A stretch of DNA of 61,368 nt, the filler included, from Sluysia triapertura (Eukaryota): the NCBI GenBank assembly GCA_046118255.1. It is 5 parts of 5 records of this genome, joined end to end, with 100 filler letters (N's around TTAATTAATTAA, not from the genome) between each part and the next. Parts side by side here need not be neighbours in the genome. Positions count along the whole stretch, not along the records: positions 37,831 to 50,015 come from JBJNIA010131071.1; 4 more parts are not named here. One strand, written 5' to 3'. The number at the start of each line of letters is the position of its first letter. Position 1 is the first letter of the stretch. Below are positions 6,443 to 58,377 of this stretch, one piece after another. The translations under genes and the position numbers were made by a program. The notes under the pieces are model-generated. The model was not told the origin of the DNA and did not search any database. It was given only the letters and a program-made list of their open reading frames with translations.

Positions 6443-6568
6443 CCCCCATACCTTTACAATCAATTACAATTACACACACACGCATGCAAACACACACAAT
6501 AGATTAATTTTACTATTTCAAGGATTTATATTTAATTAAACATACTCCTCAACTCGAATATAACTTAC

Positions 6569-8483: not shown

Positions 8484-8527
<44 letters not shown>

Positions 8528-32039: not shown

Positions 32040-32192
32040 GAATGTGTCGTGGTTTATATTCTTCATATCAATTGTTGTTAACGCACATATTGAAGAGGAA
32101 GATGATGAGGAACCAGTGTTTGAGCCTATAAATTCATACGACTCTAAAGAGATTTTTCAAGCTGCAATTGTGGTTAGAAATTTTCTAATTTA
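32040..32192 (+). mobile_element. Tigger/pogo transposase C-terminal remnant
   Basis: IVVNAHIEEEDDEEPVFEPI..SKEIFQAAIVVRNFL resembles the acidic C-terminus of CENP-B/Tigger proteins. Confidence 0.4.
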
Positions 32193-33999: not shown

Positions 34000-35830
34000 G
34001 CTGGAAACGAAGTGCTTGAACTTGTTACAACAATAACTTGAACGTAATGACGTTAATAGATTGTGTACTCTTTGTTTTGCGTTCGTCTACTTCTCGTTTA
34101 CTGCAGTTCATTTGGTAGATGTTTTGGAGTTAATAGTTTAAAAATTAAGTTTTTTAAGTTTTTAAAATTATGGTATGTTGAATTGAAGCACATTAAGTTA
34201 TAGGAATTTAAATCACCTTTACAAAAATTATAAATATATAAAATATTGTTACAAATTGTCTGATAAAATTAAAATAACGGTTTCTTCCGGAATATTATTA
34301 CGTACGTAATAAATTAAACAATAACAAAAAATTTTATTACTAAAATTATAATGCATAAATTTTATGACAAAATTTATTGAAATATTAAAGTTCCTGTATT
34401 TTCGTACGTTTCCAGTAATTTCAAGTGCAGATTCTTTCGGTATTGTTTTGATCGTCTTTATACTGTAACTGACCTTGGAGATTGTTGGAATCCAATTTGT
34501 TGTGGAGATAACTGCTTTGTAAAGAAACCAATAATTCATCTTCTTTGTTTGGCAGGTAGTATGGACAAGACCTGCCGAATTTTATGCAAGTGCCGGAAAA
34601 AATTAAAAAAGTTCCATTAATTTTGATTCACCAGAATCATCCCTTGTATTCACATCTAACACAAATTGATTCTTCTATGAGTACACATTTTTTTACTCGA
34701 ATTCATTTCTAATTCAGGATGATTTCTAAAACGCCTGATTACACTGTACGACATACAAAAACTTGTATACTCTTCTAATACATCTTGGAAATATTTAAAC
34801 ATTTTTGTTGTAGGTGAATAATAGTAAGATTTAAGCATTTCATACTTAAGGATTTAATACTTGATTTAGCAGATTTAAGTGTTTCTGTATCATTAGGGAG
34901 AATTGTATCATTTAAGTTTTTATTCATATTGCTTATGGGACTTGCTGATAGATGTAAGTTATTGAAAATTGTACTACTATTTCTATGAAAAATGTTTGAA
35001 ATCATCATTGCATAATAAATTAGGTTAATTCGATATATATTATTCCCTCGGTATTTGGATTCAGAAGTCATGAGTTACAATTTATTAGCAAAAATAGCAT
35101 TTCTTTCATCGGTTGGAAAATATATTACTTTATCTAACTTTGATACCAAAAGATACTGATGTCCATTATGAAATTCCAAAACATCTACGCTTCGGTTCTC
35201 AAATTAGCTACCTTTATAAATGGATTACCTTTATGATTTGATAAACGAAGTAGGATTTCATCATTGACAACGTTATGTTTACATTCAGCATAGTAATTGT
35301 AGCACTTCATATTTTTGAATAAATCCATCTGGTTATCTTGATCTTCGTGATGTGCTTGATAGTTAATAATTTTATTTAAAAATGAGTCATTTTCAATTTC
35401 AAACATAAAATTAGTTTTAATCGCGTTCATGTACGATTTGATTTTCATTGTTTTAATCATTTACATTCTTATAATTGTTATTACATGAATAAGTCTTATC
35501 ACTACTGTTACTTACTAATTTTGTCAAAGAATTTGAGTAATAATTTTCTTTACTAACTAACCCGATATCATCTTGAATGTATTCATGGGTAGATGAATGA
35601 TGTTCAGTAACAGGCACAATTAAAATTCTTGATGAAAATGGTGCATTACAAGAAGTAGTAGTATAAATATAAGCACCAACATAGTTTAGATCATTACGAA
35701 AATAAACTATGCTGTTATTGAAATGATTATGAATTCGTGATTTTGATTCTTTTGGAATATATAACATTATTAATGTTTATATCGCGTTGAAACTAATTTT
35801 TACAATAATGGAATTCTTCAAAATTTTGTA
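34000..35830 (-). pseudogene. Decayed intronless ORF of about 600 codons, Cys- and N-glycosylation-site-rich (env/viral glycoprotein-like)
   Basis: ORFs 35453-35767, 35185-35460, 34775-35071, 34656-34838 and 34249-34539 chain by frameshifts. Several NxS/T sites (NNS, NSS, NDS, NDT, NFS, NIS) and scattered Cys. No splice pattern seen. Confidence 0.5.
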
Positions 35831-36387
35831 TTATAAAAAATTTTAACTCGCTACAATTGTAATTTTAAATTATTAATCTCTTGTTTTTTATTGTCTAAAA
35901 TTTTAAACTTTTTTAACTTGTTGAGACTAAATTACTAAACGTGTGTAATTAACAATTTTTTGTTGTGTAATATACCATATAATATCCATGTAATAAAAAA
36001 GATAACCTATAATAATTAAACTAACGAAAAAATTTTTGTAATAAAATTTTTATAATTTATAAATAAAATAAAAAATTAAAATAACAGCAATCCAACCAAA
36101 ATTGTAAACAATCAAATCCAAATTAAAATCAAATAGAAACAAAGTTGTAAATGATCCAAAGAAGTTATACCAAAATTATAAATTGTAAAATTAACTTTGA
36201 AGTATTATGTTAATATTCATTAATTTTTAAAACCTAAAATTCATTTAATTTAAATTTGTTTAAAATAAAAATTATTCCAAAGTAAAATTAAAATCATCAT
36301 TATGATTATAAAGCTTTGATCAATTTAATAGAGTTAGTATAAATTTAATAATGCAAGAGTTTTTCTTAACTCAGTCTTATAAAAAAA

Positions 36388-37155
36388 TTTATAGCGAGTC
36401 CCACTAACGTATCTAGTCTTACCTTTTAGGGCTAGCCGTTTGATTTATTGAAAGAATAATTTATAACTACTGGGGATTTTCTTAGTGTATTTTCTTGATT
36501 TCTTACTCTCGTTTAATTGCTTAAGATTTTTGAGTTATATAATTACCGAAATTCTTATAAACGATTTTAATTTGTAGTTTTATCCGGTTCAGAATTAAAT
36601 AGAACCGTATCAATCTTAACAAAATTCAAAGTCACAAATCACAGTTTAAACGTATTGAATAAAATTAGTGGTTAAATACAATAATAATAAAATAATAGAT
36701 ATAAAATGATATAAAAGTTATAGGATTTTCTATAAATGAAAATCTGTCGCAATAAGATTTTAGGAAGGATTTTGCTCTGCTATCGTTTTATTGGATAGAG
36801 AAAATATGTAATCATTTATGTATAGTTTACTTGACAAAATAAATGTTTGCCGAAAAAACTTTCTAAAAATTAAAATTTTCAGTATTATTATGCAAAAATA
36901 TTCTTCTATTGATCAAAAGATTCTGGATTCTTCAAAAGTAAAGTCGTGGTTGTAAAGTTTGTGTCCAATATCCGAAACCAAATTAAATAATCTTTTTTCA
37001 AAAGTACTAAAATTATTTTGTAGTTGAAAACAAAATTTAAAATCAAAATTATGTGAGATTAAAGTTTTTTAGGTTATGTATTTATACTGTGAGTTTCGAC
37101 CTTGAAGGTCGAAATTCAAACAAAATAAAAGAAAATAAAAATGTTTTTCGCATTT
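36388..37155 (+). other. Conserved structured non-coding element, copy B
   Basis: Hairpins at 36406-36440, 36469-36486 and 37091-37117 (TTTCGACCTT-G-AAGGTCGAAA). Long-range stem 36890-36902/37140-37153. TATAAA (36338) and TCAGT (36371) lie just upstream. Confidence 0.6.
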
Positions 37156-37730
37156 CAAAAAAAAGTAATAATTATTAAATAATAATTTAGATTATTAAAT
37201 AATTAAAACTTTTAAATAATGATAATTCTTTAAAAATTAAATAATTCCTTTAAATAATAAGAGAAAATTTAAATTAATTCTTAAAATTGATTAACGAAAT
37301 AGATTTATAAAATTAATCAATAAAATAGATTTATTCATAATCAATATTTTTACTATTTTCGGTGTGTGAGTTTTATTAACATTTAACAATATATCAATAA
37401 AGTTTGTAATCTATTATTTACAACATAAAAATATTTACAATAACAGTTAGTTTTAAATTAAAATAAAATAAGTAATCATTTTAAAATGAGATTCTATAAA
37501 GACAATATAACATTAAATTTTAAGAACTTAAAGATTATTCTAATATGAGAGTTAAAATTTTAATAAATTGAATAAAACAAATTTACAATTAAAAATTAAT
37601 AACATTATTCCTGATCAAAATTAACTTAAATTAAAGATTGAAAGAATAATGTTATGAATTTGTTTATAAATTATAAATGTTTAAATTTGATGTATCGAAT
37701 TTAAAAGCATTATAATCGAGAAAAAGCATA

Positions 37731-37830: not shown

Positions 37831-37975
37831 TTTGGATTGATTATCGTTGGAATACAGAAGACATTTTTGGATTGATTATCGTTGGAATACAGAAGACATT
37901 TTTGGATTGATTATCGTTGGAATACAGAAGACATTTTTGATTAATAGTTGTTGGAATACAGAGGAAATTTTTGGA
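37831..37975. repeat. 35-bp tandem minisatellite, 3 perfect units plus 1 degenerate
   Basis: TTTGGATTGATTATCGTTGGAATACAGAAGACATT repeated head to tail. The array runs into the contig end. Confidence 0.95.
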
Positions 37976-38701
37976 TCAAGATTTTGGTTTTAAATACATA
38001 GTAAGCTATTTTTGTTAGGCTTAAAACAATTATTCAATTGTTTCAATTTTCCACTTAAAATTATTCAATTTTCACACTCAAGTATTAAACTTGAGTTAAA
38101 CTCAACATAAAATCTACTATAATAAAAATTAGAAAAAACATTCTAATTATTGAATTTTATTATCACTATTATTATAATTATTATTTACATTTTGTATACA
38201 CCGTATTTTTGTACTAATTGTTGTAGTCTTATATTTTAAATAAAACTTCATAGGATACGATACGTATCAAGTATTTGTTGTTACTTTATAAAAGAGAAGG
38301 GAACCATTTAGTTAATAAAACAAAAAATTTGTTGATAATTTATAGTAAATTGAAAAAAGACCCTCCATTTAAAGTTTAAGAATATCCTTCCGTAGTTTTA
38401 ATTCACAAACCAATAGCCAAGTCTTCTTTACGATTTAAATCTTGAGTTATTGGCGAACCCGGTAAGAATAACAAATTCATAATTGTTAAAATAAAGAAAA
38501 ATATTGAACAATATCATAAAATACATATTTTCAAATACATAATTTGTTTATTATAAATAAAAGATAATTTAAAATTTTAATGCATTATTTTCTGAATGAC
38601 AGTTTTTGGCTTATGGCCACTTTATTTACTTTTATTATAATTAATATAAAATTAGAACTATTTTTTAAAATTTCTTTAATAGCATTATTAGAAATTAATT
38701 A

Positions 38702-38788
38702 TAAAAATTTTAATTATAAACTTATGAAATATAAGTAATAAATCATTAAAAATTTTAATTATAAACTTATGAAATATAAGTAATAAAT
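38702..38788. repeat. Tandem duplication with a period of about 45 bp
   Basis: TAAAAATTTTAATTATAAACTTATGAAATATAAGTAATAAAT occurs twice. Confidence 0.9.
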
Positions 38789-39343
38789 TTATAAAATACA
38801 ATGATTTTCTGTAACATTTTAAATTTCAGTATACAAATTATTACGAAATTATTTTTTTTGAAAATTTAACCGAAATGTGAATAATTACTTGCAGTGTGAT
38901 CATTAAATTAAATAAATTTAACTAAGTTTATTTCAAGCTTTATTATAACGGAAAAATTTTAAATGATATACAGTTAAACTTAAAATACGAAAGATTTTTC
39001 TTATAGAATCAGATTTTTAATTATGCTATTTTAAATATGAACGATAACAAATTGTCAATTTGATTATAAATATTTAATATTAAAGTTTGTTTAAATTAAT
39101 TTTAATTAATGTACTTTTTGACTATTGCCACGCTTAATTTTTAAATGTTTCTTTTTAAAAATATATTTATCATAACTTTTGTTCAATATTTCTTTTTTAT
39201 CTGATAAAAGATTATTTTTAATTTATTTTGTTGATATTTCATTATATAGACGGTAAGAAACTTTTGATTGATAATTTTTGTTCCTGATATTGTATTACTT
39301 ATTTACTATATATTAAAAATATTGTTAACTTAAAACAAAAGTA

Positions 39344-40873
39344 ATGGATGTGGCAAATTCAACTCTAAACGTGACACTAAATGTGAGCTCAACAGCTAAT
39401 ACTACTAAAACAGTTGAGGATCCGCAAGGATTATTTATAGCATATTTTAGTTTATTTATGATGGCAATTTTACCTATTTACATTGGAGCTGAAAAATCTT
39501 TGGAACGACTTTTGCATCAAAGGGTTTGACATTTATATTTTTTAAATATCATTTTAGAAAACTGGTATTAATACTGCAGAAATATTGTCTGCCAGTGATG
39601 CTGCTAAATTTCCGCTATATGCTAGTGTTGCTTTATTCGTATTATATATAATTTTTTGGGTTTGTTTGGCATTAAAATCATTTTATTTAAATTGTAGGTG
39701 TTTTCAAAAGAATACATTAATATGCTGCTGAATTCTTATTTTCTCATTCTAGGCGCATTTGCATTATCAAATGTAATAAAGTAGGATGTTTTTAATGTTT
39801 ATATATAATTAGTTCTTTATTTATAAAACATATGCCGGATTTATTTCAAAACTGTGATTTTAAATTTATTTTGTTACGTCAAGATGATCACAATTCTCAG
39901 TTGACTAATGAAAAAGTTGATATGGATAATGAAAAAAATAAAAGTAAATATTTAAAATTAAATATTAATTTTAATTTACTATTTGTTAGATATAGAATTT
40001 GAGTATTCATTTACTCGTAAAGATCTTATTGGCTTTGGAATTTCAGTTTTAATTAGTCTTTGGTATATACTTAAAAAGGTAATCATATCTTTTCGATATT
40101 TAACTTAATTTCAGCATTGGATTGCTAATAATTTAATTGGGTTAGCATTTTCTGTAAATGCTTTAGAATACATGCATTTGAATAAAGTTGTAATTGGTTG
40201 CATTTTATTGGGTGGATTATTCATTTATGATATTTTTTGGGTATTTGGTACCAATGTAATGGTAACAGTTGCTAAATCATTCGATGCTCCAATCAAATGT
40301 AAGTATTTTTCGTTTTAGTAGAATATTCTATTTTTGTGTAGTTTATAATTTTAGTTTTCCAACTTATTTTAATCACAAATATTTCATTTCATCTCTATTA
40401 AATTCTTTCAAAAATAACCCTCATTTTATGTCCAATTTAAGTTAATACTGTACATTACTTTTTATCTCAAACACGATTTTATATATGGAAAATAAGGCCG
40501 AAAGTCTAAAAAAACATCTTAAAATAAAGCGAGGTTAAAGTATCAAAATATAACAAATTTTTATTTAGTCCGATAATAACACCAGCATTATATATGTGTG
40601 TCAGTTATCTTCAGTGATTCTAAATAATCTTCGCCGGCAATTTAATCAAGCTTAATGCGTAGCTAAATTAATCCAATAGGTTGAAGCGGATGGTTAAGTA
40701 ATTTCAGTGTAATAATTGTTGATAAACAATGCTTTTTTATCTTTCAGTGATTTTCCCACGCGATCTAGTTGTTACTGGCTTTGCGTCCAGTAATTTTGCA
40801 ATGCTAGGTTTAGGAGATATCGTAATACCTGGTATTTTCGTGGCTCTTCTTTTGAGATTTGACTATAGGTTTG

Positions 40874-40930
<57 letters not shown>

Positions 40931-43456
40931 CTATAGATCAAGGTTGGCCAAACTGTGGCTCGCGAGCCACATGCGGCTCTTTGAAGGATTATTTGTGGCG
41001 CTCGATAAATGTACCCGAGATCCATTTTCATTTTTCTGTTATTATATTTTAAAAAATTATTGTCGTTCGGTATGTGTTTCAAAATGTATTTAAAATTACT
41101 GACAACAAATGTAAAGACTAAATGCAACGTTGTAGCAAATTTCATTGCTGTCCAAGTTAAGAATGATATGACTCATCGAAAACTGCACGAACGAACTTAA
41201 ACATTGGCCCGACATAAAAGTCAGTAATCGATCGACTTCAGACCGATTTTGAATTGCAACGGACATTTGATATTGTGCTCTGGACTCCGTATTTAATTGC
41301 GGCTCGTGAAAAATTTCAAATTTTGAAAAATGAATCGCATTATCAAGGAGTTTGGCCACCCCTGCTATAGATCACTTTTAAAGCGGTTTGATGTAATGTA
41401 GAATTTTTGTGACTTGGCTTTGATAATATACTAGCAGAATTATTTTTTTACATCCCGCTACAATTCTGATTCTGTTATACAGGTTTTTGTCGCGATACGT
41501 CTCATTTGTGCTATTTATTAACCTTAATTGACATTATCACATATTAATTCCTCATATTTTGGGTATTTCAACTTATTTCTAATATGGTGCTAAGAATATT
41601 CGAAATAAACTGCGTGACATGTTCAAATAATAAATATTCACTTTTGATTCTGATATTTATATCCAATTTTGTAATACAGTAAAATAATTAACTCAAACAT
41701 AAATGATATTAGTACGATAGTACTGTTGCACTTCAATAAATGTAGTGACCGGGCCCTCTTACCTTACAGTTGTTCGGTTCGATGTTCTGACCACTAAGCT
41801 GATAGTAAATTGTACTCTCATTAATCTAAATGGCATATCTCAGCCAATTCAATAGTGCTTGACCTCAACATGAGGGTATTTGATATGTGGCTCATCATAA
41901 ATGACCGGGATTCGAACCCAGGCCCTCATATCTCACATCTGAGTATTTCGATGCTCTGACCACTAAGCTATCAGCGCCATCTATCAAATTTATATTATTA
42001 TGTCAATTATACTATCGTTAATCTAAAAGGCACTTTAGGCCATACCCTAACAGTACTATTATTACTAGTAGTATTACTCTAATAATGCATATTACGCGTT
42101 GATTTACGCAGACTATATTGGTGATTTATTTAGCAAGTGATGCTATGTTTAAGACTATTTTGTTATTATTCTATTTATCAGACAGATTTATCTTCAGGTA
42201 TGATGTCATACTTTTGCTTTAAGTTATTGATCTAAGTATTGTTTACTTACGTTTATTAAAAATATAATGATAATAATAATTTTGTGTGGTGCCCAAGTAC
42301 CGTTTTTGTATGAAATATGAATGCAAATTTTGTGGTAATACATTATCTAATTTTTGAGTTTTTATTTAACTAATGTCTTAGATGAATTTGATGTTAATAA
42401 TTCTTCGTTATATTTGAAATCTTACTTTAAATTATATTTGTTTTATATACTCAAAACTACTGGTTTAAACAAAATATTTGAAATTTAAAATATTAACGGA
42501 TTTACAAATAATTTTTGGGTTTATAAAAAGATTTTTTGTTAAATTTTAAGTGGCGTGCCTCAAGCATTAATTTATTTTATTTTATTTATTTATTAATTTA
42601 TTTAAAATTTATACATCTTTGTTTATTAAGTTTTGGAAATATTAGATCTTGTTTTAATTGATTTAATTTAATATATTAATCAGTCAAGTCATTGTTAGGA
42701 TGCGCCTTATTTTACACAAAGTTTATTTTTTAGGATGCTCCTTATAGGCCGAAAATGCGGTAAATATTAAAATTTAAAAAATATTATTAGCCTAAAACGC
42801 CCATCAAAAGGTGGTCGTTTGGGAAAATGTGGCAGAATGAAAAAACGTAAGTGAGAAATGGTAGATATTTGGTGAAACTTTCTACGATGAATCGTAAAGC
42901 TATGACTTTGCAGAAGCAGTTAGAGACTTGCGGAATTCACGTTAGTGTCAGAACAGTCAACCCAGAAGAAAGCCTAAGTAGACAACACCAGTATTAATCA
43001 GTGAAAGGTTGGCATAGGTGGAGCAACACCAACATTTAACTGAGCAAGACTGGAGTCAAGTGTGTTTTAGTGTCGAGTCGTCTTTTCAAGTATTGGATGA
43101 CAAGACCACCTTTGTAAGAAGGAGATAATTATTATTTGAGAACGAGACGACCCTAAGAAGAAAGCCTAAGTTTACACCAAGCATTTAACTGAGGATGACT
43201 GGAGTCAAGTGTGTTTTAATGACGAGTCCTTTCAAGTATTGGATGACAAGACGGAGATGAGAAGGAGACCTAATGAGGAGTTTCAAATATTATTTTTTAT
43301 TCATTCATTTATCTATAATCATTTATTATTTATTATTTATATTTGGAATTCAGTCAACAGAAAGGTAAAAGAACGTATTTTATTGCTGGATATCTGGCTT
43401 ATATTATCGGTTTGGCGACAACTATTATTGTAATGCATATTTTTAAGCATGCACAG
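39344..43456 (+). CDS. HM13: Signal peptide peptidase (HM13/SPP, presenilin-type aspartyl protease), exons 1-8; final PALL exon(s) not found on this contig
   Basis: Exons 39344-39523, 39558-39659, 39698-39780, 39813-39943, 39990-40078, 40115-40298, 40748-40868 and 43354-43456, all GT-AG and in frame. Motifs HWIANN, LFIYDIFWVFGTNVMVTVAKSFDAPIKL, MLGLGDIVIPGIFVALLLRFD and MHIFKHAQ. Confidence 0.96.
40939..41364 (+). mobile_element. Non-autonomous hAT element (Charlie/SPIN-like) in SPP intron 7
   Basis: TIRs CAAGGTTGGCCAAACT / AGTTTGGCCACCCCTG, a perfect 8-bp TSD CTATAGAT (40931-40938 and 41365-41372), and subterminal GGCTCGCGAGCC palindrome. Confidence 0.93.
41745..42035 (-). mobile_element. 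Tandem tRNA-derived SINE units
   Basis: A box TAGCTTAGTGGTCAGAGC and B box GGTTCGAATCC (41908-41918). Second head GCTTAGTGGTCAGAACATCGA at about 41780-41800. Block GCC(A/T)TTTAGATTAA repeated at about 42030 and 41834. Confidence 0.75.
42790..43285 (+). mobile_element. Tc1-like transposase remnant with internal duplication
   Basis: PRRKP..HLTEQDWSQVCFSVESSFQV and HLTEDDWSQVCFNDESFQVLDD..RRRPNE match the Tc1 WxxVxFSDESxF motif twice. Confidence 0.8.
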
Positions 43457-43533
43457 GTTGGTATTTTAATTGATCATTAAGTTTTAACCTTATTTATATT
43501 ATTTTTTAATTACTTATAGCAATTACATAAAAT

Positions 43534-45018
43534 TGTACAGTAACTCTTATTATATATGTTCAAAATGGTTTACAGACTATTGTGTATCAAAAATTAAGTG
43601 TGATAAATCACATTAAATAAATAATGATAGGTAATAAATTCTTTTAAGTCATTTATTTAATAATTTTATAACTACAAGTAGATATTGATTATCCCAGTAT
43701 ATTTTCTCCTAATACCAGTTTTCTAGTTTCACTGATTGGTGGATATTATTTGAGTTCAGTCTGTTGATTTGCCGACACTTTCTTATATAATACATTTGTA
43801 ATTGTTTTGTGAAATATTGATTACTTTTAGTTTTTCTATAATCTTTGCAAGTTCAAACATTAAGTAGGATTACGAAAAATATCTTAAAAAGATCTAAATA
43901 ACCCATAACAAGTCTATAGGCAGAACCGAACCTAAAATCCACAGTGAATTTTTACGCAATTAAGGGCTCGTCCACAGAATTTTGTTAACAAATTTTTACT
44001 TATTTACTTAACAATTATAAATTTTAAACGGGTCTGTTTGTAGTCTACGGTTTATAACGTAAAGTGGACGTATTTACAGAACTGACTGCGAATAAGTGTT
44101 CCCTAGTCTTGTCAAATAAATATTATGAATCTTTTGTTTTATAAATTTATGTTCTTAATCGTTTCTTGAAATCTTTTTATTAGGTTAACTCTAAACATAT
44201 TTTTAAACTAATAAGTCAATTAAAATAATGCAAAAATTTATTAATTACAAAAAAATCGTTGATTAATAAATATAATAACAAGGATATCCAAATTATAATA
44301 CTTGGATTGTTAAAAGTTGATACAGATTTTAAGTAGAAATTTAACGCTAAAAATATCAGAGCATTGAAACTTAACAATTATTATCTTGCTTTAACGATAT
44401 TATAAATTATGATGATTTTTTGTCTGGAACGTTCCCGATTCTAATGTATTTTCCCAAATCGCGAAGTGATGTCAGTTCGAACAGAAAACTGCTGCCAAGA
44501 TTAATAATGAAAATCTTTTCTTGTCGATCAAATAAATTTTAAATCTTCGGGACCACTAATTGTGTATCCTTCGTGAAATATCCTTTAATTAACTTAGCGC
44601 GCAAAATTTTTGAAACAAAATATTTGAGTCTTGTGTTTTTTGTCATCTTTATATATTTTTCTATTTCAACATTATATTCCAGCAATTACAAATATCATAA
44701 ATTATTAAGGAATCCAGTGAATGCAGATATAAATTATTAAATAAAAATTTTTGATGTGAAATTAATTTGTTTTTTATACTAGTAATAAAATATATAATAA
44801 AATTCAGAGAATTATTGTATATCATTTGTACTGATAAAAATAGAAATATTTAATTAAATATTTATACATTTATACTGATTAAAATTATATTCAACTTGTT
44901 ACATTATTTTTAAAAATAAAAAAATATATCTATTTTTATTAAATACATTATATACATTTAAAAATACATTATACTTAAAAATTTAATACATTATTAAAAA
45001 TTCAATACATTATTTACA
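43534..45018 (-). mobile_element. Putative 3' LTR (about 1.5 kb) of a large LTR retroelement in SPP intron 8
   Basis: On the minus strand a purine tract GATAGGGAAG precedes TGTAAAT (45018). The candidate end ...ACTGTACA (43534) gives TGTA...TACA termini. Contains a degenerate HSE (44422-44440) and the family motif GACCCGTTTAAAAT (44021-44034). Confidence 0.55.
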
Positions 45019-45099
45019 ATACTTCCCTATCAGGGAAGATTCGTCCTGAATCACAGAATAAAATTAATAATCAGTAAAAGAATCAATATTAGTCAACGT

Positions 45100-46395
45100 T
45101 GCTATCAACAAAGCCAGTTCGATAAAGATGGCTGGATGATGAATGATAGCAGTTTTTCTGGTCTAATTGCGAATTCCGTTTGGCGGAAGAGATACTAACG
45201 GGAATATGATTCGGATTTGGAGGTGAACTGCCCAACCATTTGTCTACTTGATCAAAAATATTTTAATATGATGGCTATGTTGCTGAAATTGAATGCTCTT
45301 GATGCGATTGGTTTGTTTTGGTAGAATATATTATACCACTTGATGATGAGTTATTAACCAATGATGTGCCAGGTGTCACAAGAACATCAGAGAATAGTGA
45401 AGGAGGAGGAAGCGAACAGTTAGGAATGAAAGACGTGTCCTTTACTCTAATAAAATCGAGAAGGGAAATCAATTCAAAAGCCATACATGAACATGTCATT
45501 TTAAGGATATAGATGACGTGTGAAAAGTAGAGAAGGCGAAATGTTTGACGACCTCGCGATATTGGGTCCGTAGTGGAATAAGACAAAAGATTATGATTTG
45601 TCAAATTAATAACGCCTTTAAGCCAACCAAAGGATAGTCGATGAGGCAAGGATTCAAAGATACCAAGATTTTATCATTAAGGTGCCCCAAGAAGAATGGC
45701 CTCACGTCATCTATATCCTTATCCTCAAGGTTGTCAGTGTCCTTAATATCCTGGATATCGCGGACAAAGTTCTTGATACGCAAGCGTGGCTTAATATTAG
45801 TATCAGAATGTTATTTCTTGCAATAAGGGACGCAACTGAACTGCGTAATATGTAGTCGGTTTAGGAAATCGAAAGCGCAGGAGTAAGCAATAAAAACTAA
45901 ACGTTAAGGGTGGAACATGCGTGAAAGGAACACCGCTGTTCCAACGTTCCATATTAACTGCTCCAGAAACGACTGGTAATCTGTGATAAGTAGTGGGAAT
46001 AATAAGGCAAAAGAAGTGGGGAATTCTGCACCTTCGATGACAGTATCACTATTCCTATGAAGATTGGATACGTAGAGTGAAGAGAAACTATGTACCCTCG
46101 TCAAATAAGGAGTTCCCTTGTCAAGGAGGGTAAGTTTAATGACACCACGAGCCACAACTACATAGAAAAACTTGATATAATCTAGAATATTCGTTGGACC
46201 ATTTAATGAAATGTGAGATTTTTCAGGTGTGAAGGCGAAAATACGTGTGGCGAGGTTAAGATCCAACTCAGATTTCAAGTTGTTAGGGGGTAGATACAAA
46301 ATTAGGAAAGAAGGCAGGTGTGATGTTCTCGTGTCAAAACTTGTCGACGTACACGTAGAAATTCTTTTGTTGGTTGAGGATCTTCGCTTCCATTA
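45100..46395 (-). pseudogene. Decayed accessory ORF (about 430 codons, unknown family) just upstream of the PPT
   Basis: Higher GC than flanks. ORFs 45904-46299, 45601-45783 and 45275-45649 chain through stops and frameshifts. Ser/Pro-rich tail. Confidence 0.55.
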
Positions 46396-46544
46396 TACTA
46401 AAGTAGTAGGTGAATCATAAAACAAAATTGTACAAAGCAAAACAAAAACCGAATAAAACAAAAAAATAAGTATATAATTTTCTAATTACAAAACTTGTTT
46501 ATACATTTGTATTATACGATTTTAAGAAAAATTTATCGTATTTT

Positions 46545-46946
46545 CTTTAAGAATGGGTTAGTCGGCTTAGTAGTACCATTTTTGCTAACGTTTTGTATTT
46601 TGTAAAAATGTTTGAGTTGGCCTCTACGTCTATTTCTTTTTTGAGATCTTGTCAAGTTCGGAATTATGATTGGAGGCGGCCTAACCAAACCATTCTTAAT
46701 AAGATTCTTTTTATCTGTAATAGGTTGATAAATATCAATACCTGGCTACTCAGGTATTATGCATTTGATTGTAAAAGTGTAAGATCTTCGAAATGTTTAT
46801 AATAAATATTGCACTCAACAATAGTAGTCCTACATAGAAGGTAAAGGTGACAAAGAGGTTGTAGACACAAGAAAAATGGAAGCGATGGAATCAAGGTGTC
46901 GTCCTGGAAAAATATTTTCTAATTGACCTGAGGCAAATAGCACATG
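46545..46946 (-). pseudogene. Decayed small membrane-protein ORF
   Basis: Hydrophobic LFVTFTFYVGLLLLSAIFIINI, followed after a frameshift by RPPPIIIPNLTRSQKRNRRRG. Confidence 0.4.
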
Positions 46947-47426
46947 TTGAGTTTTTTTTACTAAAACAATAAAATATAAGATAATAAGTAATTAAGTGAT
47001 GCTAGTAATTTAAATCAAAAACTTAAAAAAATAAAAATAAGTAGATAATTTATGTTAGTTTATGACTCGAAATGGATGGTAAACCATCATAAACAGTCAG
47101 TTACACAATCCTTATTATCACGCATGGCCAAATCTGAATGTTAGAGCCATCACATATGGTCAGATGTGAAATATGTTAACAATTTATATTTTAATGAAAA
47201 AATGAGCCTTATGCCTAATAAACAGATAGAATTTTGGGATGATGAAATTTATCGTTATTGTCATTAATAAAGCTATTATTAAAATACAGTTACCAATTGT
47301 AATGAAATTACTGTTGGATTTTATTAACGATGGATACCTATTATTGATAATCAGGTGATGCACAATACAACGAAATATATATGTAACGTCATAACGTCAC
47401 ATGTGTTCACTGAATTGGTATGATTC

Positions 47427-49360
47427 TTAAGTAATTGTCGACTTTACTTGTGTTATTTGCCATTCTCCATAAATAAACGGCGCTTTATTATTTGTAGCGT
47501 ATTCGTAAATTGGATGTGGGAATATTGGCATACCCGGTGGAATCGCATAATCACATTCGATGTGGAATTGTATATGGGCAATCGTCATTATTATTATTCT
47601 GTGGCAGACAAGGATATCGACATCTATTTTGCACAAACATAATAATCGTTAACACTACTATAGCAAGAGCGATTACGAACAATATTGCTGATACTATTAA
47701 TATTACCAACGCCGAATCGCTCCGCAATATCTCCAGTATTGTTAAATATTGTCTTTCTTTTAATTCAAAATGCAAATATTTCGATGAATGACGAATTTTC
47801 ACAACATACCGTGACAGGATATTTCAAGTCATCACAAATATAATTTTCATATATAATCCAGGAACTAAAATTAAATCTAGCAAGTTTCAGACATGAATAT
47901 TATTTGGCATGAATATTATTGTCTAATATTTTAACATTTACTTCGTTATCCATATTATGAAATTCAAAGCATTCTGTCCTAAAAGAATGTTCACGGCGTT
48001 GAACTACTGTAATTATTGTAATTAAAATTAATGGTATAAAATTTTTATTACTCGTAAGGATTTTTATTTTTCTGTCTATTTGAAACAAATAAATTTAATG
48101 TTCCTAATTTTTACTGTTTCCATTTTGTTATATGATGTAAAACTGATTGTGCAATTGGTTACTTTTGTATTATGAAAAGTTTTCATCGTTTTAAAAGTCC
48201 GTAAGCCTAATGTTATAATTAAATTAGTTTTATTAATTATTGTTAAATTAAAATTTAAGGTCAAAATTCTTCAGTTCTAAATTTGGGGTTGTCAATTGTT
48301 TCATATATATAATTGTGGTTAAATGACACTTGAAAAATTGTTTAACGTCATTAAAATGAATTACTTTATAAAAATTGATAATAATTATCTTGAAAATGAC
48401 TCCTTTATGATTTAAAATTTTATATGAAATACGTTTAATTTGATTACAAATATTCATTTCTATTAAAAAGAAGTCGGAGACAACAAATACGAATTTATTT
48501 TTCTTTATGTTATATAATAATATGACACAAAGATTAAAATTTGTTAAAACATTTAGGACATTGAATGGAACGTTTGCATTTCGGAAGTAGGTAACTTTCT
48601 TCGGCTGTGGAATTCTAAAATAAAAAGGATATTTTATTTGTCGAATATAAAAGATAAAATTTACTTTAAGTTCGAAATCGCCAATAAAGCTATAAAATTG
48701 AATATCTTCTATTAAGGTAGCATAGTTCTTATTACATGTCAAATTGTCTAAATCTTTAGCATCTTGAATAGCCATTATTAGATTGTTTACACGTTCTATA
48801 TGATCAAAATTATCATTGGCTTTAATATCAATATAGCGAATTTCATTGATGGTATGGAACAAATTACACGATGCTCTGTATTTACTGCAATGACCTAATT
48901 TGTTCGATTGAAATGGACATTAAGCAGTTCGAGATAATTTATTTTTGCATTGGCTTGAAGAAACATCAATTAAAGGTGTGATTATTGAAGGAGCATGATT
49001 GTTTACGAATAATCTGCTGTAATTTTACTATGAAGTACATAGACATTGTATGAATCAGGATCCGATAGAATTATGCTAACTGTCTTACATGTATCATTTG
49101 TGAAATCATATTTATACACATGACCTTCGTTAAGGTAACTAGGAACACTTGGTGGATAAGGTATAACATAAAATTTAACCACTAAGTCGGAAGCCAATTC
49201 TAAATTATTAATTTCTTTTAAAATTATATGTAACTCAACCACAGGATTACGATACATCTTGAGCATTTTTATATTACTATTCATTTCTTTTGTAAAATGG
49301 GTTAAAGATTGTACAAATCAAAGAACATTTGAAGAAGAAAACGCGTTATTCTTCATTAAA
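47427..49360 (-). pseudogene. Decayed type I membrane glycoprotein ORF (env-like, about 600 codons)
   Basis: ORFs 49003-49284, 48248-48862, 48076-48264, 47900-48088, 47551-47802 and 47427-47636 chain together. Cys-containing ectodomain with NxT sites, TM SALVILIVSAILFVIALAIVVLTIIMFV, and a tail with YTIP, YAIP and IYEY. Confidence 0.6.
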
Positions 49361-50015
49361 TTTTTGACGTATGTTTGATGTTCTTCAATTTGCATAATAT
49401 ACTGATTGAAATTGATTATTTTATTTAGAGATATTAATCCACTATTTACAACTATTTTTAGTGATTCTGATGAACAAATAAAACTTTCTGACTCTTGAAT
49501 TCCTATCAGAATGCAATGTGATGATAAGCCCGATTCTATTTTGTTATTTTGTTGTTAGGATTCATTTAGTTGCTCCGTTTCCTTTACTTTAATTTCATCG
49601 TCATTAAAATTATTATTTGTATGACAAAATGATTTATTCAAAGCAGCATTTCCGTAAAGTTTTGCTTAACTTCAATCGTTAATTTTGATCGAATGATTTC
49701 GTTCATTATAATCTATGGTAGGTAATTAAGCCAAAGTAGTCGATTCTCATAAATGATAATTAATTGAATAGGATTTGTTGGTAATTATAATTTTTTAATT
49801 TTTACTGAACCACATTATGATATCTATGTTGATTGGACGAGCAATCACTGTAAGTAAAATTACAATGCAGAGATAGACTTGATTGGACGCCCAATTAACT
49901 GCTGCATTAACGTCGACGAAGTTGTAAGCATGTATGCTTGTCACCATGCTGCTAAAAAGAATTGACGTAGAGAAATGTTGACAAGCAAAATGATACCATA
50001 CGCTTGGAAACGGTC

Positions 50016-50115
50016 NNNNNNNNNNNNNNNNNNNNNNNNNNNNNNNNNNNNNNNNNNNNTTAATTAATTAANNNNNNNNNNNNNNNNNNNNNNNNNNNNN
50101 NNNNNNNNNNNNNNN
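50016..50115. other. Artificial contig linker
   Basis: N44-TTAATTAATTAA-N44. Confidence 0.97.
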
Positions 50116-50380: not shown

Positions 50381-51039
50381 AAAATTCAACATAATATTTA
50401 AAATTAAACTATTTAAATTAAAATTATAAATAATATTTAAATTATAAAATTTAGTATCATACTTTTTATAAGAATCCTATTTTTTCTTTTTTTACAAAAA
50501 ACCAATAAAAGTTTTAAATAAAAGTTTTAATCAAAATCCAATCAAATATCAATAAATACATAAATTATACACAAATGTATTAAAGTTCAAACTGATTATT
50601 TTTATACAAATATATTTAAAAGTACACAAATGTGTTAAAGTTCAAATTGATGTATGTTCTTTCTCCACAAATCTCGTAATAATAATAATAATAATCAATA
50701 AAATCACAAATCAGTCACATTATTTTCTAATTATTTACTTAATATTAATCCCAATTTTACGCCACGCGTTTCACAAACTCTATGTTGCAAACTCTCAACA
50801 CCATAACACACATTTCTAGAGCATGTCACTTGTTTTGGTTTTTATTTTTTCTTTTTTCATTTCTATTCGATTAAAAATTATGAAAAATAGAAATTGCTTA
50901 TTCTACTATTAATTTCTCATGAACTCGAACATATATATTAATAATAATAATAATAAATAATATTTCGATATATGTGGAAATAACTTATTCAAATATTTTC
51001 ATATTGACAAGAACTCTACTGTAACACAAAAGGATTACC

Positions 51040-51670
51040 CAAGAATATCGAGTCATCATCAACACGTAATATTAAGTTTATTAATTTTCTATAATTATAA
51101 TTACATTTTATTATAAAATATTGTTAATGTTCACATTTTTCCATAGTCTTCTCGATCACTAAGTGAAATTCTATTGGTAAGTTTCTATAGTTGGGTTAAT
51201 GAAGTGATTATTAAATAACACAAATACTATTGATAACAATTAATAAAATTGAAATTAAATAAAAATATAATAATCAATTAAATGAGTTTAAAACGTCCAC
51301 TTAAATATTTTGTTTGTGAAAAACAAGTGAATAATTTTAAAATTTAAATATGTTTAATAAATTAAATTAGCATAAAATATAATCAGGAACTTAAAATAAA
51401 ACAAAAAGGAAGCTGAATCTAAAACTTTAAACAATATAAAAATAATCATATTATGAGAATCTTATTTTGGACGATATATTAAAACATTAGTTTGAAAATT
51501 ACATTAAGATCACAAATTAGGAGCCTTTTTAAGTGTTATTCTAAATATTTAAAAATAAATTCATTACTTTTCATTTTATATAAGTACTTCTGACTTTGCA
51601 TTCCAACAAGACAGTTGACACAATTTATTTATCGTATTCTCAGTAGCAAATTAAAAATTTATTAATATTC
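51040..51670 (+). repeat. Dispersed repeat; diverged copies at 55225-56100 and (partial) 51915-52060
   Basis: AATATCGAGTCATCAT..., ATAGTCTTCTCGATCACTAAGTGA, AAAACAAAAAGGAAGCT and GTATTCTCAGTA.AAATTAAAAATTTA occur in the same order in both long copies. Confidence 0.85.
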
Positions 51671-52094
51671 AAAAACTTTTCTCTGATTAATTAAAAACAG
51701 TTAATAATGAAAATAGTATACCATTATTAAAAAAATTTAACATAAAAAATATATTTATATACATTAAATAAAAAATTAAATTTGTGTCACTTAAAATAAT
51801 AAATAATTTTTCGATATCTATTATGATTATTTTATATTGAATTTTATTTTGTGAAAATTTTGTGAAAGATTTTTATTTTTAAATTTTATATTTAATTAAA
51901 ATTTATTCATATTAATTTAGGGCATGAACGAACATGTAATATTAAGTTTCTTAATTTTATACTATTAGAATTATATTTTATGAATAAACATTATCAATGC
52001 TTACATTTTACGTAGAAGCCCAGATCAATAAGTGAAGTTGCATTTGTTAGTTTCCTTGTATATTATAGGATTTTGGGTACAGAAATTATTGTGA

Positions 52095-55150: not shown

Positions 55151-55402
55151 GAATTTTGACATATCAGAGAAAGACAATATAATGGTTATTTTTATTTTTA
55201 AATGTTTCATAAAAAAATTTAGGGCACCCCAATAATATCGAGTCATCATAAACATGTAATGTTACTTATTAATTTTCTATAATTAGAATTATATTTTATT
55301 AATAAACATTATTAATGTCCACATTTTCAATAGTCTTCTCGATCACTAAGTGAGGTTGCTTTGGTAAATTTCTTTATATTACTACTGTTGGATTATAGTT
55401 AA

Positions 55403-55588
55403 CACGTTTGCAACCAGCGTTGTATCAGCGTCGCACATATGTGGCGTGTCTACATTATCAGTTTTCGATAAGGTGTTGTACTAGTTTTTTGCAGTTAAAA
55501 AATTCAATGCGATTTAAAGTCATTTCATTTGAAAAATTTCCATAGGCTGTGATATGATATTTTCTTCTCAAGCTCTGGTTGCGAACGT
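55403..55588. mobile_element. piggyBac-like MITE nested in the 55.2-56.1 kb repeat
   Basis: TTAA-CACGTTTGCAACCAG ... CTGGTTGCGAACGT inverted repeats. Absent from the sister copy at about 51200. Confidence 0.65.
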
Positions 55589-58377
55589 CATGATTAAATA
55601 ACACAAGTACTACGATAATAATTAATAAAATTGAAAATAAATGGAAATATAAGAACTAATTAAACAAATTTTAAATATCCACTTAAATATTTTGTCAACT
55701 ATTTTGTAAAAAACAAATAATGGAAAATTTTAAAATATGTGTTTAATAAATTATTGACACAGCAATTAGCATACAGTAAAATCAAAAACTAAAAATAAAA
55801 CAAAAAGGAAGCTTAATAATAATACAAAAATAATCATATTATGAAAATCTTATTTTTGATATAATTTCTAATTATAGAAGCCATATTAAAACATTTATAT
55901 GAAAATCATATTAATGTCACTAATTAAGGGTCTATTTTAATATTTATTTAGAAAATAAATTCTAAATTCACTCGGAAAGTATTTAAAAATAATTTCATTG
56001 CTTTTTTTACACAAATACTTCTGTCTTTTGTGTTTCAACAAGAAAGTTGACAAAATACATTTATTGTATTCTCAGTAATAAATTAAAAATTTACTATTAT
56101 TCTATACTACAAAATGAATATCATTCGCCTATGTCAAACGATTTATACCTTTACTGGAGACGTACCTATAGGATTTTATTACTTGAAGTATATTAATTCG
56201 AATTTGTTTTTCGAGCTATGCGCATTAAGTATATCTTCTTACTTACATTCAATTACTTAAGTAATTTATTTTCTCATTAAAATCTTTTAGAGTTTTATTA
56301 ACTTAATCTCTTTTGGTTGTCATTCTTTTATCAATGCTAAAACGCTTTAATTATCTATAACTTGCTGCTAACTTTATCAATAAGAAAGCTAAAAAGTCTT
56401 CCTAATATTTATTAAGACGATGTAATAGTTCAAATGTAATGGAACAATAAAATAACTAATTAAATAAAAATGGCTTGATATATTAAATCCAGTACTTAAT
56501 ATTTAATTAAATAATTTAGAAATTGATTTCGTCCGTAATTAATATTTTAGAATTAAAATATTAATGTATTTTTTAATGGAAAAATGAATGAATTCATTTA
56601 CTTAATGGACCACAAAAGTATTTCAATAAACTTTTTAATTTATCTAATGGATTTTCTATTTATTTAATGGATGTTAAAATGAAAAATAATTAATTTTTTA
56701 ATGAAAATAATTTATAATGGATTTAATATATTGCAAATGGATTTTTAAATGGAGTATAAAGACAAAAACATAAAATATAAATTCAATAGATGGTAACGAG
56801 TTTTGTTAATCGCGTGTAATATTTTACAACTGGATAAAGCTTCGACTTGGTTATTTGATATCCAATCATTTGAGAAATTAATTTGGTTCGATTATTTGGA
56901 AGATTAATTTAAAAAATTTTATTTGGTATTTCAATTGGCTGAACCAGATAAATGCATATTTTATCCATGATTTTGTTAAAATACGTAAGTTTTTGTTACA
57001 TAAGTTCTCTTTACTTAAATGAGGCACAAACTAGACTTAAAATCTAAATAACTTTTGCGCTGGCTTAACCATTTATAAAATCACTACAAAATACTAATGA
57101 AAAAACCCATACTATTTTTTGTATATTGTTTTATTTTTAATAGTTCCTGAATTATGATTCCATTATCTTAACTGTTGTACGTTATGTTGAATAAAAATTT
57201 CATATTAACAAATTATTTGTTTTGAACTATCTTGAAAAATTTATGGTTAATTATATACTTTTGTGTGTTTACATGAGTTCTTTGTTGGAGATTTAGATTT
57301 AATGTTAAAATCATGACTTCCTAATTTTTAAAATAGAATTATAGAAGAAAAGTAACTTCACTATGAATTTAGACAAACGATATAATCATAGAATTTCTTT
57401 TATAATTCAACATTATTAATGATTTCTCAACAAACAATGTCACATCACAAGAAATACAGAAAAACTTATCTGGGACCAGATAGCTTAATTTTGTATATTG
57501 ACCATTTCATTCTATAAAAATCTTTGATTAAATTTTTAAATTAAAAGACTTTTGAGAAATCACTGATTAAGGAGAAAAATATCTGAAAATGAATTAAGAA
57601 ATTAAATTGTTAATATAACTTTATGGAATGATTTTAAAATCTCCAAATTAAGTGATAGAGCGTCCAAAATAACACATTGTTATTTTAGTTGTATACGAAT
57701 TTAATGAAGTTATAATTTCAGTTTGTGCAAATTGAACTGAATTTGGCACACTAGCGCTAAGCATTACTAACTGAAGCTAATGTGAAACAAATCATCCATC
57801 GTCCCCAAATAAAATCGTGGGCTTCTCATTAAAATAGTGTATTCCATCCTTAGTAGCTACTTCTAAATTATTCAGTATTAAGCAATTATTCCGACGTTTT
57901 CGTTAATCAAAAAGAGATCTAGTGCTTCTTATCTAATTTTATGGAGTTTTGGACTACAATATATGAAATTTTCGTATAACATAAGCATTTTGTATAGCTA
58001 ACAACTTCAGATTGACTTTGTGGTACACCATCTTGATAAGCTGTGAAATATTTGTTACTTTGGTAAAGTGTCACCAATAAATCGTCAAACATATCTTCGA
58101 ATTTTGAAATAACTTCAGTAATGGCTAGAGATCACCAACATATTTATTTCGACGAGGAATAGATTGTTTTGTTTTTAGCATTACTGTTGAAGCAATTGCA
58201 CAATATTTTCACAATACCTTGCATGGTAGAGAGTTAGGACAAAGTTAGAGTGAGAAAAATAGTTATGGTAAGATAATTAAGAGATGTTGAGGGTTTTTTT
58301 TATAGAAATTTCATTTTTGATTAAATTCTAAATTCTTAATTATTAAAATTTAATATATTAGGTTATTTATGTGGTTG

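Follow-up and report, generated by a model that had tools for sequence, protein, structure and literature searches.

Vertebrate retroviruses provide the best-known examples of complex genomes with accessory genes. Among LTR retrotransposons, extra ORFs are known from planarian Burro, bdelloid Vesta and TelKA, and plant Retand. The sequence-only reading of the present locus took additional ORFs beside env to be unusual, a premise weaker than stated (PMC5408684, PMC6431247, PMC7264820). Burro (GYPSM1), as described in PMC6431247, comprises giant gypsy-like LTR retrotransposons of dugesiid planarians, with env homology and with domains linked to ubiquitination and apoptosis, namely AIR1 (with a RING Zn-finger), MATH, Ubi2/SUMO-like, BIR and BCL2, all of which lie in frame within a single ORF1 polyprotein of 4,873-5,140 aa, env being placed between gag and pol; the Burro of D. 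tigrina has an additional upstream accessory ORF. The bdelloid elements TelKA, Vesta and Juno carry varied 3' ORFs, among them an F-type env of 600 aa, small TM proteins and captured enzymes (PMC5408684, main text). A recent metazoan-wide survey treats three-ORF elements of up to 10 kb, with env assigned by HHpred and structure, and its Platyhelminthes members have gB-type env only, upstream of pol in GAG-ENV-POL order (PMC13524379). Limited as it was to such elements, the survey could have missed longer 3' cassettes with an unrecognised glycoprotein.

Here we describe a locus within a 61,368-nucleotide window of the Sluysia triapertura genome (GCA_046118255.1), assembled from parts of five contigs. 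An intron of the signal peptide peptidase (SPP) gene holds, in antisense, a decayed, repeated, intronless cassette that we read as the likely 3' end of an old LTR retrotransposon of the Gypsy-like kind. Its family would have had three to five extra ORFs, one of them for a predicted membrane glycoprotein and another for what is likely a RING-H2 ubiquitin ligase with a membrane anchor (Table 1). The evidence is one decayed, truncated copy. It resembles Burro in its large extra coding capacity and would do so in a putative domain of the ubiquitination kind and a possible env likeness, whereas its ORFs look separate and stand at the 3' end by a 1-kb LTR, not in one polyprotein (PMC6431247). In the 5 kb visible there is no giant ORF1, no env between gag and pol, and no Pfam match to the Burro-type BIR, MATH, ankyrin or BCL2 domains. 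Like the bdelloid elements, it would be an invertebrate LTR element with varied 3' ORFs; the captured enzymes there are GDSL esterases and DEDDy exonucleases, and the word "RING" is absent from the main text of PMC5408684.

Table 1. Features of the cassette and its surroundings (positions in the window)
Feature	Position	Strand	Basis or remark
SPP host exon	43354..43456	+	Pfam Peptidase_A22B E 6.2e-7; translation
Single-copy host intron	43457..43975	.	contig depth between 13 and 31 save for one bin (77); 43,199-44,023 is an unbroken contig of depth 13.3
LTR-like segment, ~1.04 kb	43983..45018	-	TGTA start at 45,018; far end ~43,976-43,983; CA end candidate 43,983
Two small hairpins and short PPT-like purine tract directly before TGTA	45019..45053	-	folding; depth
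Last ORF, ~430 codons, 4 stops, at least 1 frame break	45092..46392	-	stop/frameshift cost
Perfect 18-bp inverted repeat, arms 45,503-45,520 and 45,703-45,720	45503..45720	.	inside last ORF, beside frame break
Decayed ORF with hydrophobic stretch, RING-H2-like motif (46,944-46,867), Pro-rich and basic tail	46536..47015	-	stops, frame breaks
Possible further small ORF, 133 codons, 2 stops, TM-like stretch at 47,306	47217..47615	-	
Decayed predicted type I membrane glycoprotein, five frame pieces, ~750 codons	47551..49794	-	stop/frameshift cost; C-terminal TM helix and short tail
Stop-free hydrophobic fragment at contig end	49798..50013	-	in frame with first glycoprotein piece, one stop away
Artificial contig joint (N44, 12-base spacer, N44)	50016..50115	.	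identical joint four times in window

The host gene and the limits of the repeat

The cassette lies, antisense to SPP, in the intron that follows the eighth SPP exon of the contig (exon count read from the sequence). The insertion had been placed 77 nt after this exon, and the exon end at 43,456 does fall 77 bases before 43,534; the repeat, however, starts ~520 bases after the exon. Contig depth, a rough indicator only and taken from one run that may be the source of the window itself, is that of single-copy DNA across 43,450-43,929 (13-31, with one AT-rich bin at 77), which makes the TGTA...TACA LTR of 1.5 kb first proposed too long, its end at 43,534 failing. Depth rises to 316 and then to 1,331 across 43,930-44,049, with the repeat edge near 43,980. 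Within the LTR-like segment, depth is 1,331-1,611 at 43,990-44,109 and 71-341 at 44,110-45,009, with loose ends behind 44,081 and 44,087; the middle of the segment is less widely shared than either end, and much less so than the end block 43,98x-44,090. The CA candidate at 43,983 fits the depth edge without being unique: over 12 bases it agrees with the inverted LTR start at 8, and three sites in the single-copy intron do at least as well. The segment is not depleted of stops (45 of 200 shuffles).

At the other side, the part of contig JBJNIA010131071.1 stops at 50,015, an end that the minus-strand cassette reaches, and the bases past the joint are not contiguous with it. Because the contig ends there, pol, gag, a second LTR, PBS and TSD are not visible. 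The SPP PALL exon that was expected beyond the insertion was looked for within the window and not found.

Coding signal and copy number

The decayed intronless minus-strand coding sequence proposed for this region proves real over 45,092-50,013, as judged from stop depletion against shuffles and from its repetition in the genome. The longest stop-free frames, of 223 and 162 codons, were reached by none of 300 block shuffles, and the stop-plus-frameshift cost is 46 on the minus strand as opposed to 78.5 on the plus strand and at least 75.5 in 100 shuffles. Stop depletion goes far past shuffles in two of the three cassette parts, namely the glycoprotein (cost 19.5 vs a shuffle mean of 47.1) and the last ORF (7.5 vs 17.5), neither cost being reached in 200 shuffles; it is not significant for the RING interval at 46.4-47.55 kb, which 33 of 200 shuffles equal. 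Contig depth over 45,157-50,015 is 238-3,485 per 407-base bin, as against 13-26 in single-copy contigs. The best frames of the present copy hold ~2 stops per 100 codons, plus frame breaks, and it therefore cannot make the proteins.

Up to four tandem ORFs had been counted. Several decayed ORFs do stand, with their number uncertain: the hydrophobic fragment at 49.8-50.0 kb may be a separate ORF or the signal peptide of the glycoprotein, and the further frame at 47,615-47,217 (no PDB match below E 1.4) is possibly a separate small ORF, or else belongs to the RING protein as its lumenal and TM part. The absence of any gag or pol motif was confirmed, the Pfam gag, pol and env families being unmatched in the ORFs and read-through frames scanned, which form part of the six frames.

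Elsewhere in the window, on another contig, decayed frames resembling RNase H and integrase, with weak Pfam matches (E 0.024 and 0.09), are followed by further ORF-like frames (5 of 200 shuffles); post-pol ORFs thus seem to occur in this genome.

The junction with the LTR-like segment

A PPT had been proposed next to the TGTA...TACA-bounded segment, and a purine-rich tract indeed abuts the TGTA at 45,018 on the minus strand. The tract is short and impure (10 purines in its last 15 bases), and upon folding it forms one arm of a perfect 7-bp hairpin. The arrangement by which Ty3/Gypsy elements are recognised, a PPT directly before a TG-starting 3' LTR, is accordingly present, with a short tract. 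The bin 45,010-45,069 has a depth of 10,173, with flanks that are unlike on both sides in other contigs: the 43-base double-hairpin block with the PPT (45,011-45,053) is common to very many otherwise different repeats. Loose ends occur in other contigs at 45,011, 45,020, 45,052 and 45,053; nine contigs remain in agreement as far as 45,011, which is eight bases inside the LTR, and in the row of loose ends at 45,020 the LTR-start tetranucleotide is found again within one base of the same place. Rfam gives no match, and the hairpin/PPT motif none in viral contigs; five metagenome-contig matches, all in bacterial-looking coding DNA of 53-64% GC, were rejected as chance. A hairpin before the PPT presumably occurs in Gypsy elements, a feature that no paper documented in our literature search, in which subscription journals and Repbase reports were thinly covered.

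Terminal hairpins are typical of Helitron-type ends, and it might be argued that the region is a mosaic of separate repeats, in which the block 45,011-45,053, instead of being a PPT, terminates a rolling-circle (Helitron/Helentron) or other DNA element. The hairpin arm formed by the purine tract would agree with this, as would a depth that varies strongly along the region, between 21 and about 11,000. Yet the window holds no matching second terminal repeat, the LTR-start tetranucleotide is kept beside the tract in other contigs, and a one-strand coding signal runs through both long ORF regions, all of which makes such a mosaic very improbable indeed. Pfam scans returned no transposase match, and neither end motif has a second copy in the window, the other end being missing.

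The likely alternative to that mosaic, the 3' end of an LTR element with extra ORFs, as proposed at the outset, is upheld by the repeat status of the cassette, by the conserved hairpin/PPT/TGTA junction, and by the last ORF, whose end at 45,092 lies about 40 bases before the block. Depth reaches 6,000-11,000 at 47.6-47.77 kb, of an order of magnitude like that of the PPT block; a single large related family containing both would be consistent with this. At 45,070-45,249, between the last ORF and the block, it is only 21-43, and hence no second copy is shown to link the cassette to this LTR. GC content is 38-41% in the last ORF vs 24-33% in the glycoprotein, a gap that could reflect separate origins.

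Large glycoprotein, small RING protein, protein of about 430 codons: this order and these sizes are virus-like. Together with tandem intronless ORFs that leave little spacer and a cassette-LTR link near single-copy depth, they bring up the alternative that the cassette derives from the genome of an unrelated virus, for example from the glycoprotein and nucleoprotein block of a negative-strand RNA virus or from a RING-bearing part of a DNA virus. An LTR element would have captured and amplified this piece, or it would lie beside a solo LTR, and its genes would not serve the element as accessory genes. The last gene that belongs to an element usually ends right at the PPT, however, as the last ORF does here; no viral family is matched in Pfam or PDB; the 162-codon frame has no phmmer match among 1.84 billion representatives; and the 223-codon frame has none in viral contigs. 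BEL/Pao and gypsy elements are reported to have captured Chuviridae-like glycoproteins (PMC13524379), which speaks for the virus piece; on balance we consider it distinctly unlikely. The last ORF likewise has no relatives in Pfam or among PDB sequences, and its single-sequence AlphaFold model has a pLDDT of 34; an NAD_binding_4 assignment (ESM Atlas, score at most 0.86, low recognition) was rejected as chance.

The predicted glycoprotein

The glycoprotein had been read as a type I membrane protein of ~600 codons. Its TM helix is borne out at 47,709-47,653 (hydropathy 3.48; 25 consecutive codons with a pyrimidine at position 2), while the frame pieces span about 750 codons. Seventeen Cys and seven sequons were counted in four of the pieces, and the predicted protein thus has the generic features of an Env, a C-terminal TM anchor and a Cys-rich glycosylated ectodomain. 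Two of its motifs bear some likeness, by eye, to F-type env. No relatives were found in Pfam, PDB sequences or a word-index protein search, nor any Pfam or PDB match of the F class (baculovirus/paramyxovirus F), decay lowering the sensitivity in each case; there is also no family match to the HSV/gB class and no usable match in the ESM Atlas, and the single-sequence AlphaFold model has a pLDDT of 30. The R-x-K/R-R site is absent from four of the five frame pieces, those four having been scanned. With that, with no match to a fusion-protein family or structure, and with pol, a paired LTR, PBS and TSD beyond the contig end, the labels "possibly enveloped" and "endogenous retrovirus-like" first attached to the element are conjectural.

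That env features of this kind are generic is a warning given in section 3.2 of PMC5408684, and the furin site and fusion peptide that it reports for the TelKA env were not found in the glycoprotein pieces scanned. As in the three-ORF env-bearing elements of PMC13524379, a predicted env-size type I membrane protein with Cys and sequons stands near the 3' LTR-like end; here, on the other hand, at least two ORFs follow it, and neither F nor gB is matched. We would put an Env-like surface or fusion protein at slightly less than an even chance.

Likeness of the glycoprotein to ORFs at 33-36 kb or 52-54 kb was not above shuffles; the one piece that did beat them (0 of 100) had its TM helix aligned with a microsatellite translation. 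An HTH-like reading in another frame at 47.72 kb was ruled out, codon-position bias marking the TM frame as coding.

The RING-H2-like ORF

What had been described as a small TM protein with a basic tail does have a hydrophobic stretch and a basic tail, but a RING-H2-like motif, broken in this copy, had been missed. Of the eight zinc ligands that a RING-H2 ligase has in C3H2C3 spacing, the first CxxC and the HxFHxxC share one frame, with a stop inside the motif, and the last pair lies outside that frame. Over the full frame, Pfam zf-RING_2 gives E 0.25, and after trimming zf-RING_11 gives E 0.0034, scores that fall short of the Pfam cut-offs; the best PDB match after trimming has E 0.004, with 10 of the 13 matches being named RING/E3 proteins. 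A generic RING motif arises in 18 of 1,000 shuffles. No PA or other lumenal domain was detected in the region by Pfam or PDB, and a REV match on the basic tail (E 0.012) was put down to composition. The RING-H2-like domain, putative as it is, strengthens the idea of accessory genes.

The best RING matches in PDB are cellular (ZNRF3, AMFR, RLIM, RNF38 and one plant protein), and the ORFs are without introns, as opposed to the many short introns of the neighbouring SPP gene. Both points would suit an LTR element in which template switching had incorporated processed host mRNAs, one for a TM-RING-H2 ligase and one for a membrane glycoprotein, as passengers without a role for the element, and LTR elements are known to transduce host genes (PMC7264820). 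Such transduced ORFs, by the same account, occur in one or a few copies, whereas the cassette ORFs stand at tens to hundreds of times single-copy depth. Moreover, PDB RINGs are mostly cellular, so that a cellular match is expected regardless, and the glycoprotein and last ORF match no cellular family; we regard host passengers as highly unlikely.

Large DNA viruses use membrane RING ligases, and with these, as with the cellular RING-H2 ligases ZNRF3, AMFR, RNF38 and RLIM, the cassette ORF has in common CxxC...HxFHxxC preceded by a hydrophobic stretch; its motif differs from both in being broken and inside a repeat. Our literature search, with subscription journals and Repbase reports thinly covered, found no paper on an LTR element bearing a 3' RING-H2 ORF or a 3' glycoprotein-plus-RING layout.

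Possible mechanism and significance

As the 3' end of a Gypsy-like element, the cassette would have belonged to a family that multiplied through reverse transcription, its plus strand primed from the purine tract and its copies integrated by way of TG...CA ends; gag-pol would lie beyond the contig end or be supplied in trans, and expression of the 3' ORFs would depend on splicing or on RNAs that start internally. By analogy with the RING ligases of large DNA viruses, the RING protein might, tentatively, ubiquitinate host membrane or defence proteins. A bolder reading, which we hold to be on the unlikely side, is that of an enveloped Gypsy-like ERV lineage of invertebrates with a complex genome. 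Downstream of pol, such a lineage would encode an Env outside the recognised families, a membrane RING-H2 ligase of its own for clearing away host surface or defence proteins, and one more protein, of 430 residues; if true, this would be a retroelement with an E3 ligase as a stand-alone accessory gene. If the family were confirmed, invertebrate LTR elements would gain a new candidate for env and a ubiquitin ligase that they encode themselves, and whether such elements counter host defence with proteins would become testable.

Coding content of the minus-strand cassette

Between 45,019 and 50,015 the two longest stop-free frames, of 223 and 162 codons, both lie on the minus strand, and neither was equalled in block shuffles (0/300 for each). 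When stops are counted and frame switches allowed, the minus strand costs 46, as against 78.5 for the plus strand and a mean of 88.5 for shuffles (lowest 75.5, n = 100). The glycoprotein region costs 19.5 versus 47.1 in shuffles and the last ORF 7.5 versus 17.5, with an equally low cost in 0/200 in both cases, whereas the 46.4–47.55 kb interval (17 versus 19.9; 33/200 as low) is not significant. The tandem ORFs of the sequence-only reading are thus upheld by stop depletion in the first two regions but not in the third. Non-coding controls behaved as expected (45/200 for the LTR-like segment, 141/200 for one intron of the signal peptide peptidase, or SPP, gene). Across twelve hand-picked frame pieces, 30 of the 1,567 codons are stops, versus 0.067 stops per codon when the three minus frames are taken together; the present copy of the cassette is dead.

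Features of the cassette in the reading direction of the minus strand
Feature	Position	Strand	Description
Hydrophobic fragment	50,013–49,798	minus	stop-free; in frame with next piece, one stop between
Predicted glycoprotein	49,794–47,551	minus	~750 codons, five frame pieces
Small TM-like frame	47,615–47,217	minus	133 codons, 2 stops, TM-like stretch
RING-H2-like ORF	~47,015–46,536	minus	hydrophobic stretch, RING-H2-like motif, Pro-rich basic tail
Last ORF	46,392–45,092	minus	~430 codons, 38–41% GC

The hydrophobic fragment, being in frame and one stop from the glycoprotein, is an ORF of its own or else a signal peptide; with the small TM frame likewise ambiguous, the ORF count is three to five. 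The type I membrane glycoprotein proposed earlier retains a strong TM helix (47,709–47,653), in a frame confirmed by 25 successive codons whose second base is a pyrimidine, but its span exceeds the roughly 600 codons claimed for it. Four of its five pieces were counted, giving 17 cysteines and seven sequons, and the R-x-K/R-R site is absent from these four. By eye, a pair of aromatic-Pro motifs, each with spaced cysteines after it, may recall F-type env. The last ORF contains a perfect 18-bp inverted repeat (45,503–45,520 / 45,703–45,720) adjacent to a frame break.

For the glycoprotein and the last ORF, nothing usable was returned by Pfam, a word-index search, PDB sequences, viral contigs or the ESM Atlas, nor did phmmer find a usable match for the 162-codon frame among 1.84 billion representatives; single-sequence AlphaFold models reached pLDDT values of 30 and 34. 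Because decay and frame breaks cut search sensitivity, these blanks prove neither novelty nor absence.

A RING-H2-like gene

Where the sequence-only reading saw a small TM protein with a basic tail, the hydrophobic stretch and the basic tail are indeed present and a RING-H2-like motif can now be added, although the interval is the one lacking significant stop depletion. A 340-codon frame matches zf-RING_2 (E 0.25) and two other RING families in Pfam, and a trimmed 77-codon frame matches zf-RING_11 (E 0.0034) and three more, all below the Pfam cut-offs and with optimistic E-values, since the trimming was chosen after the first RING match had been seen. Ten of the 13 PDB matches are named RING or E3 proteins (ZNRF3, AMFR, RLIM, RNF38); of the others, the two best (E 0.004–0.005) align via the same Cys/His pattern and one is an unrelated transporter. 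When the region was shuffled 1,000 times, a generic half-RING pattern arose in 18 shuffles and a motif-fitted pattern in none; a six-frame reading of the whole window has a single occurrence of the fitted pattern. The motif is broken, with a stop inside and its last ligand pair outside that frame; from this sequence pattern, its identity as a RING is very likely.

Repeat status and the boundary of the LTR-like segment

Depth was summed over contigs of one public DNA run, possibly the source of the window itself, placed at 80% likeness, and is a rough guide only. Contigs identical or near-identical to the window set a baseline of 13–26, and bins over 45,157–50,015 range from 238 to 3,485; individual positions at 47.63–47.65 kb come close to 11,000. 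Single-position depth over 47,200–48,050, centred on the TM helix, is 2,400–11,000, some tenfold that of the rest of the cassette, and could be the trace of a highly abundant family, either a related or a deleted one.

In 60-base bins, depth is 13–31 over 43,450–43,929 (one bin of 77), so that 43,534, earlier taken as the LTR end, falls inside single-copy intron. Depth then rises to 316 at 43,930–43,989 and 1,331–1,611 at 43,990–44,109, and the computed repeat edge lies at ~43,976. If the TG/CA terminus is at 43,983, the LTR-like segment would measure 1,036 bp; this end matches the inverted LTR start at 8 of 12 bases, a score equalled by three intron sites.

Depth is 71–341 over 44,110–45,009, 10,173 at 45,010–45,069 and 21–43 over 45,070–45,249. 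The 43-base block at 45,011–45,053 contains a pair of small hairpins, one of which has a short purine tract as an arm, together with the initial bases of the LTR; it is common to other contigs, which diverge on both sides. Nine contigs agree up to eight bases into the LTR, and a row of loose ends at 45,020 recovers the LTR-start tetranucleotide within one base. This is the pattern expected of a PPT/attachment junction common to many LTR families. Plant Gypsy elements may carry a similar GGAC-loop hairpin ahead of the PPT, for which the literature searched offered no support. That the region is a mosaic with a Helitron-type end is very improbable. Counting against the junction reading, the near-single-copy depth at 45,070–45,249 means that no other copy was seen joining the cassette to the LTR-like segment; a captured or adjacent virus fragment would be a separate source for the cassette, and we consider it unlikely.

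Host gene and neighboring contigs

The window joins five contigs through four artificial N44/12-base/N44 spacers, and the cassette occupies the right-hand end of one of them (37,831–50,015), so sequence past 50,015 is unlinked to it. This contig carries an AT-rich SPP gene with many short introns, three of whose exons match Peptidase_A22B in Pfam (E 9e-10, 3e-21 and 6e-7). Translation places the end of the last exon seen at 43,456, in agreement with an exon end 77 bases before 43,534; the PALL exon, which the earlier note proposed to look for, was not found within the window. The intron before exon 8 holds other high-depth repeats (42,845–43,280 and 40,940–41,310), with an 82-base piece duplicated at 43,026/43,174. 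The repeats and the SPP gene evidently belong to a eukaryote whose genome is rich in repeats; that it is a planarian is an assumption, and one search meant to place the host gave no match.

Another contig (50,116–61,368) holds, at 55,200–52,500 on the minus strand, decayed frames that resemble Gypsy RNase H and integrase (E 0.024 and 0.09 in Pfam, unsupported by the PDB); after them come a small ORF with a TM stretch and a PPxY-like motif, and another ORF-like frame. Stop depletion is equalled in 3/200 shuffles for the pol part and 5/200 for the post-pol part, and these frames suggest that post-pol ORFs occur in this genome; the tests run detected no homology to the cassette. Diverged direct repeats of 71–85% identity (51,038–51,670, 51,931–52,061 and 55,228–56,102) flank the pol region and are old LTRs or another dispersed repeat. 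Elsewhere, ~2.1 kb of decayed coding sequence at 35,830–33,700 (minus; contig 25,668–37,730), with strong stop depletion (0/200 shuffles) and no Pfam match, is possibly another mobile-element cassette. An intronless 290-codon ORF at 30,717–31,589 (plus) holds the CNOT1 CAF1-binding domain alone (E 1.7e-42) and, presumably far shorter than full CNOT1, is a truncated paralogue or retrocopy; an intronless sugar-transporter ORF at 1,473–2,567 (plus) covers the first half of its Pfam model only (E 8.5e-23).

Comparison with known elements and proposed explanation

In the Burro elements of planarians, domains related to ubiquitin and apoptosis are part of a single giant polyprotein, as is env, which sits between gag and pol (PMC6431247), a layout with which the visible part of the cassette is at odds. 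A metazoan survey, filtered for three-ORF regions of ≤10 kb, describes Ty3/gypsy elements with F-type and gB-type env and, for flatworms, only gB-type env in GAG-ENV-POL order (PMC13524379). In bdelloid elements, ORF3 may encode env, a small TM protein, an esterase or an exonuclease (PMC5408684); plant elements often have additional ORFs downstream of pol, ahead of the 3' LTR (PMC7264820); and Gypsy elements are abundant in planarians (PMC11410931). Searches of an incomplete literature showed no LTR element in which a RING-H2 gene comes after a 3' glycoprotein.

The repeated, intronless cassette, coding on a single strand, stops ~40 bases short of a PPT-like junction, beyond which lies a repeated segment of 1 kb. 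That its frames are retrocopies of host mRNAs carried as passengers is quite unlikely; the cassette is probably the 3' end of an LTR retrotransposon, whose copies would be made by reverse transcription and then integrated. Of the earlier description, the decayed minus-strand ORFs with a TM glycoprotein stand, the LTR boundary is corrected and the RING-like gene is new. The glycoprotein might, with confidence a little short of even, be an Env-like surface protein. Viral membrane ligases offer a model for the predicted TM-RING protein, which by this analogy could tentatively ubiquitinate host membrane or defence proteins, and the product of the last ORF would, at a guess, be a soluble regulatory or RNA-binding accessory protein. 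A bolder reading, an enveloped invertebrate retroelement encoding its own E3 ligase, is doubtful. Ty3/Gypsy, the errantiviruses and Burro were considered as families for the element, which in its manner of working is like a complex LTR element bearing accessory genes.
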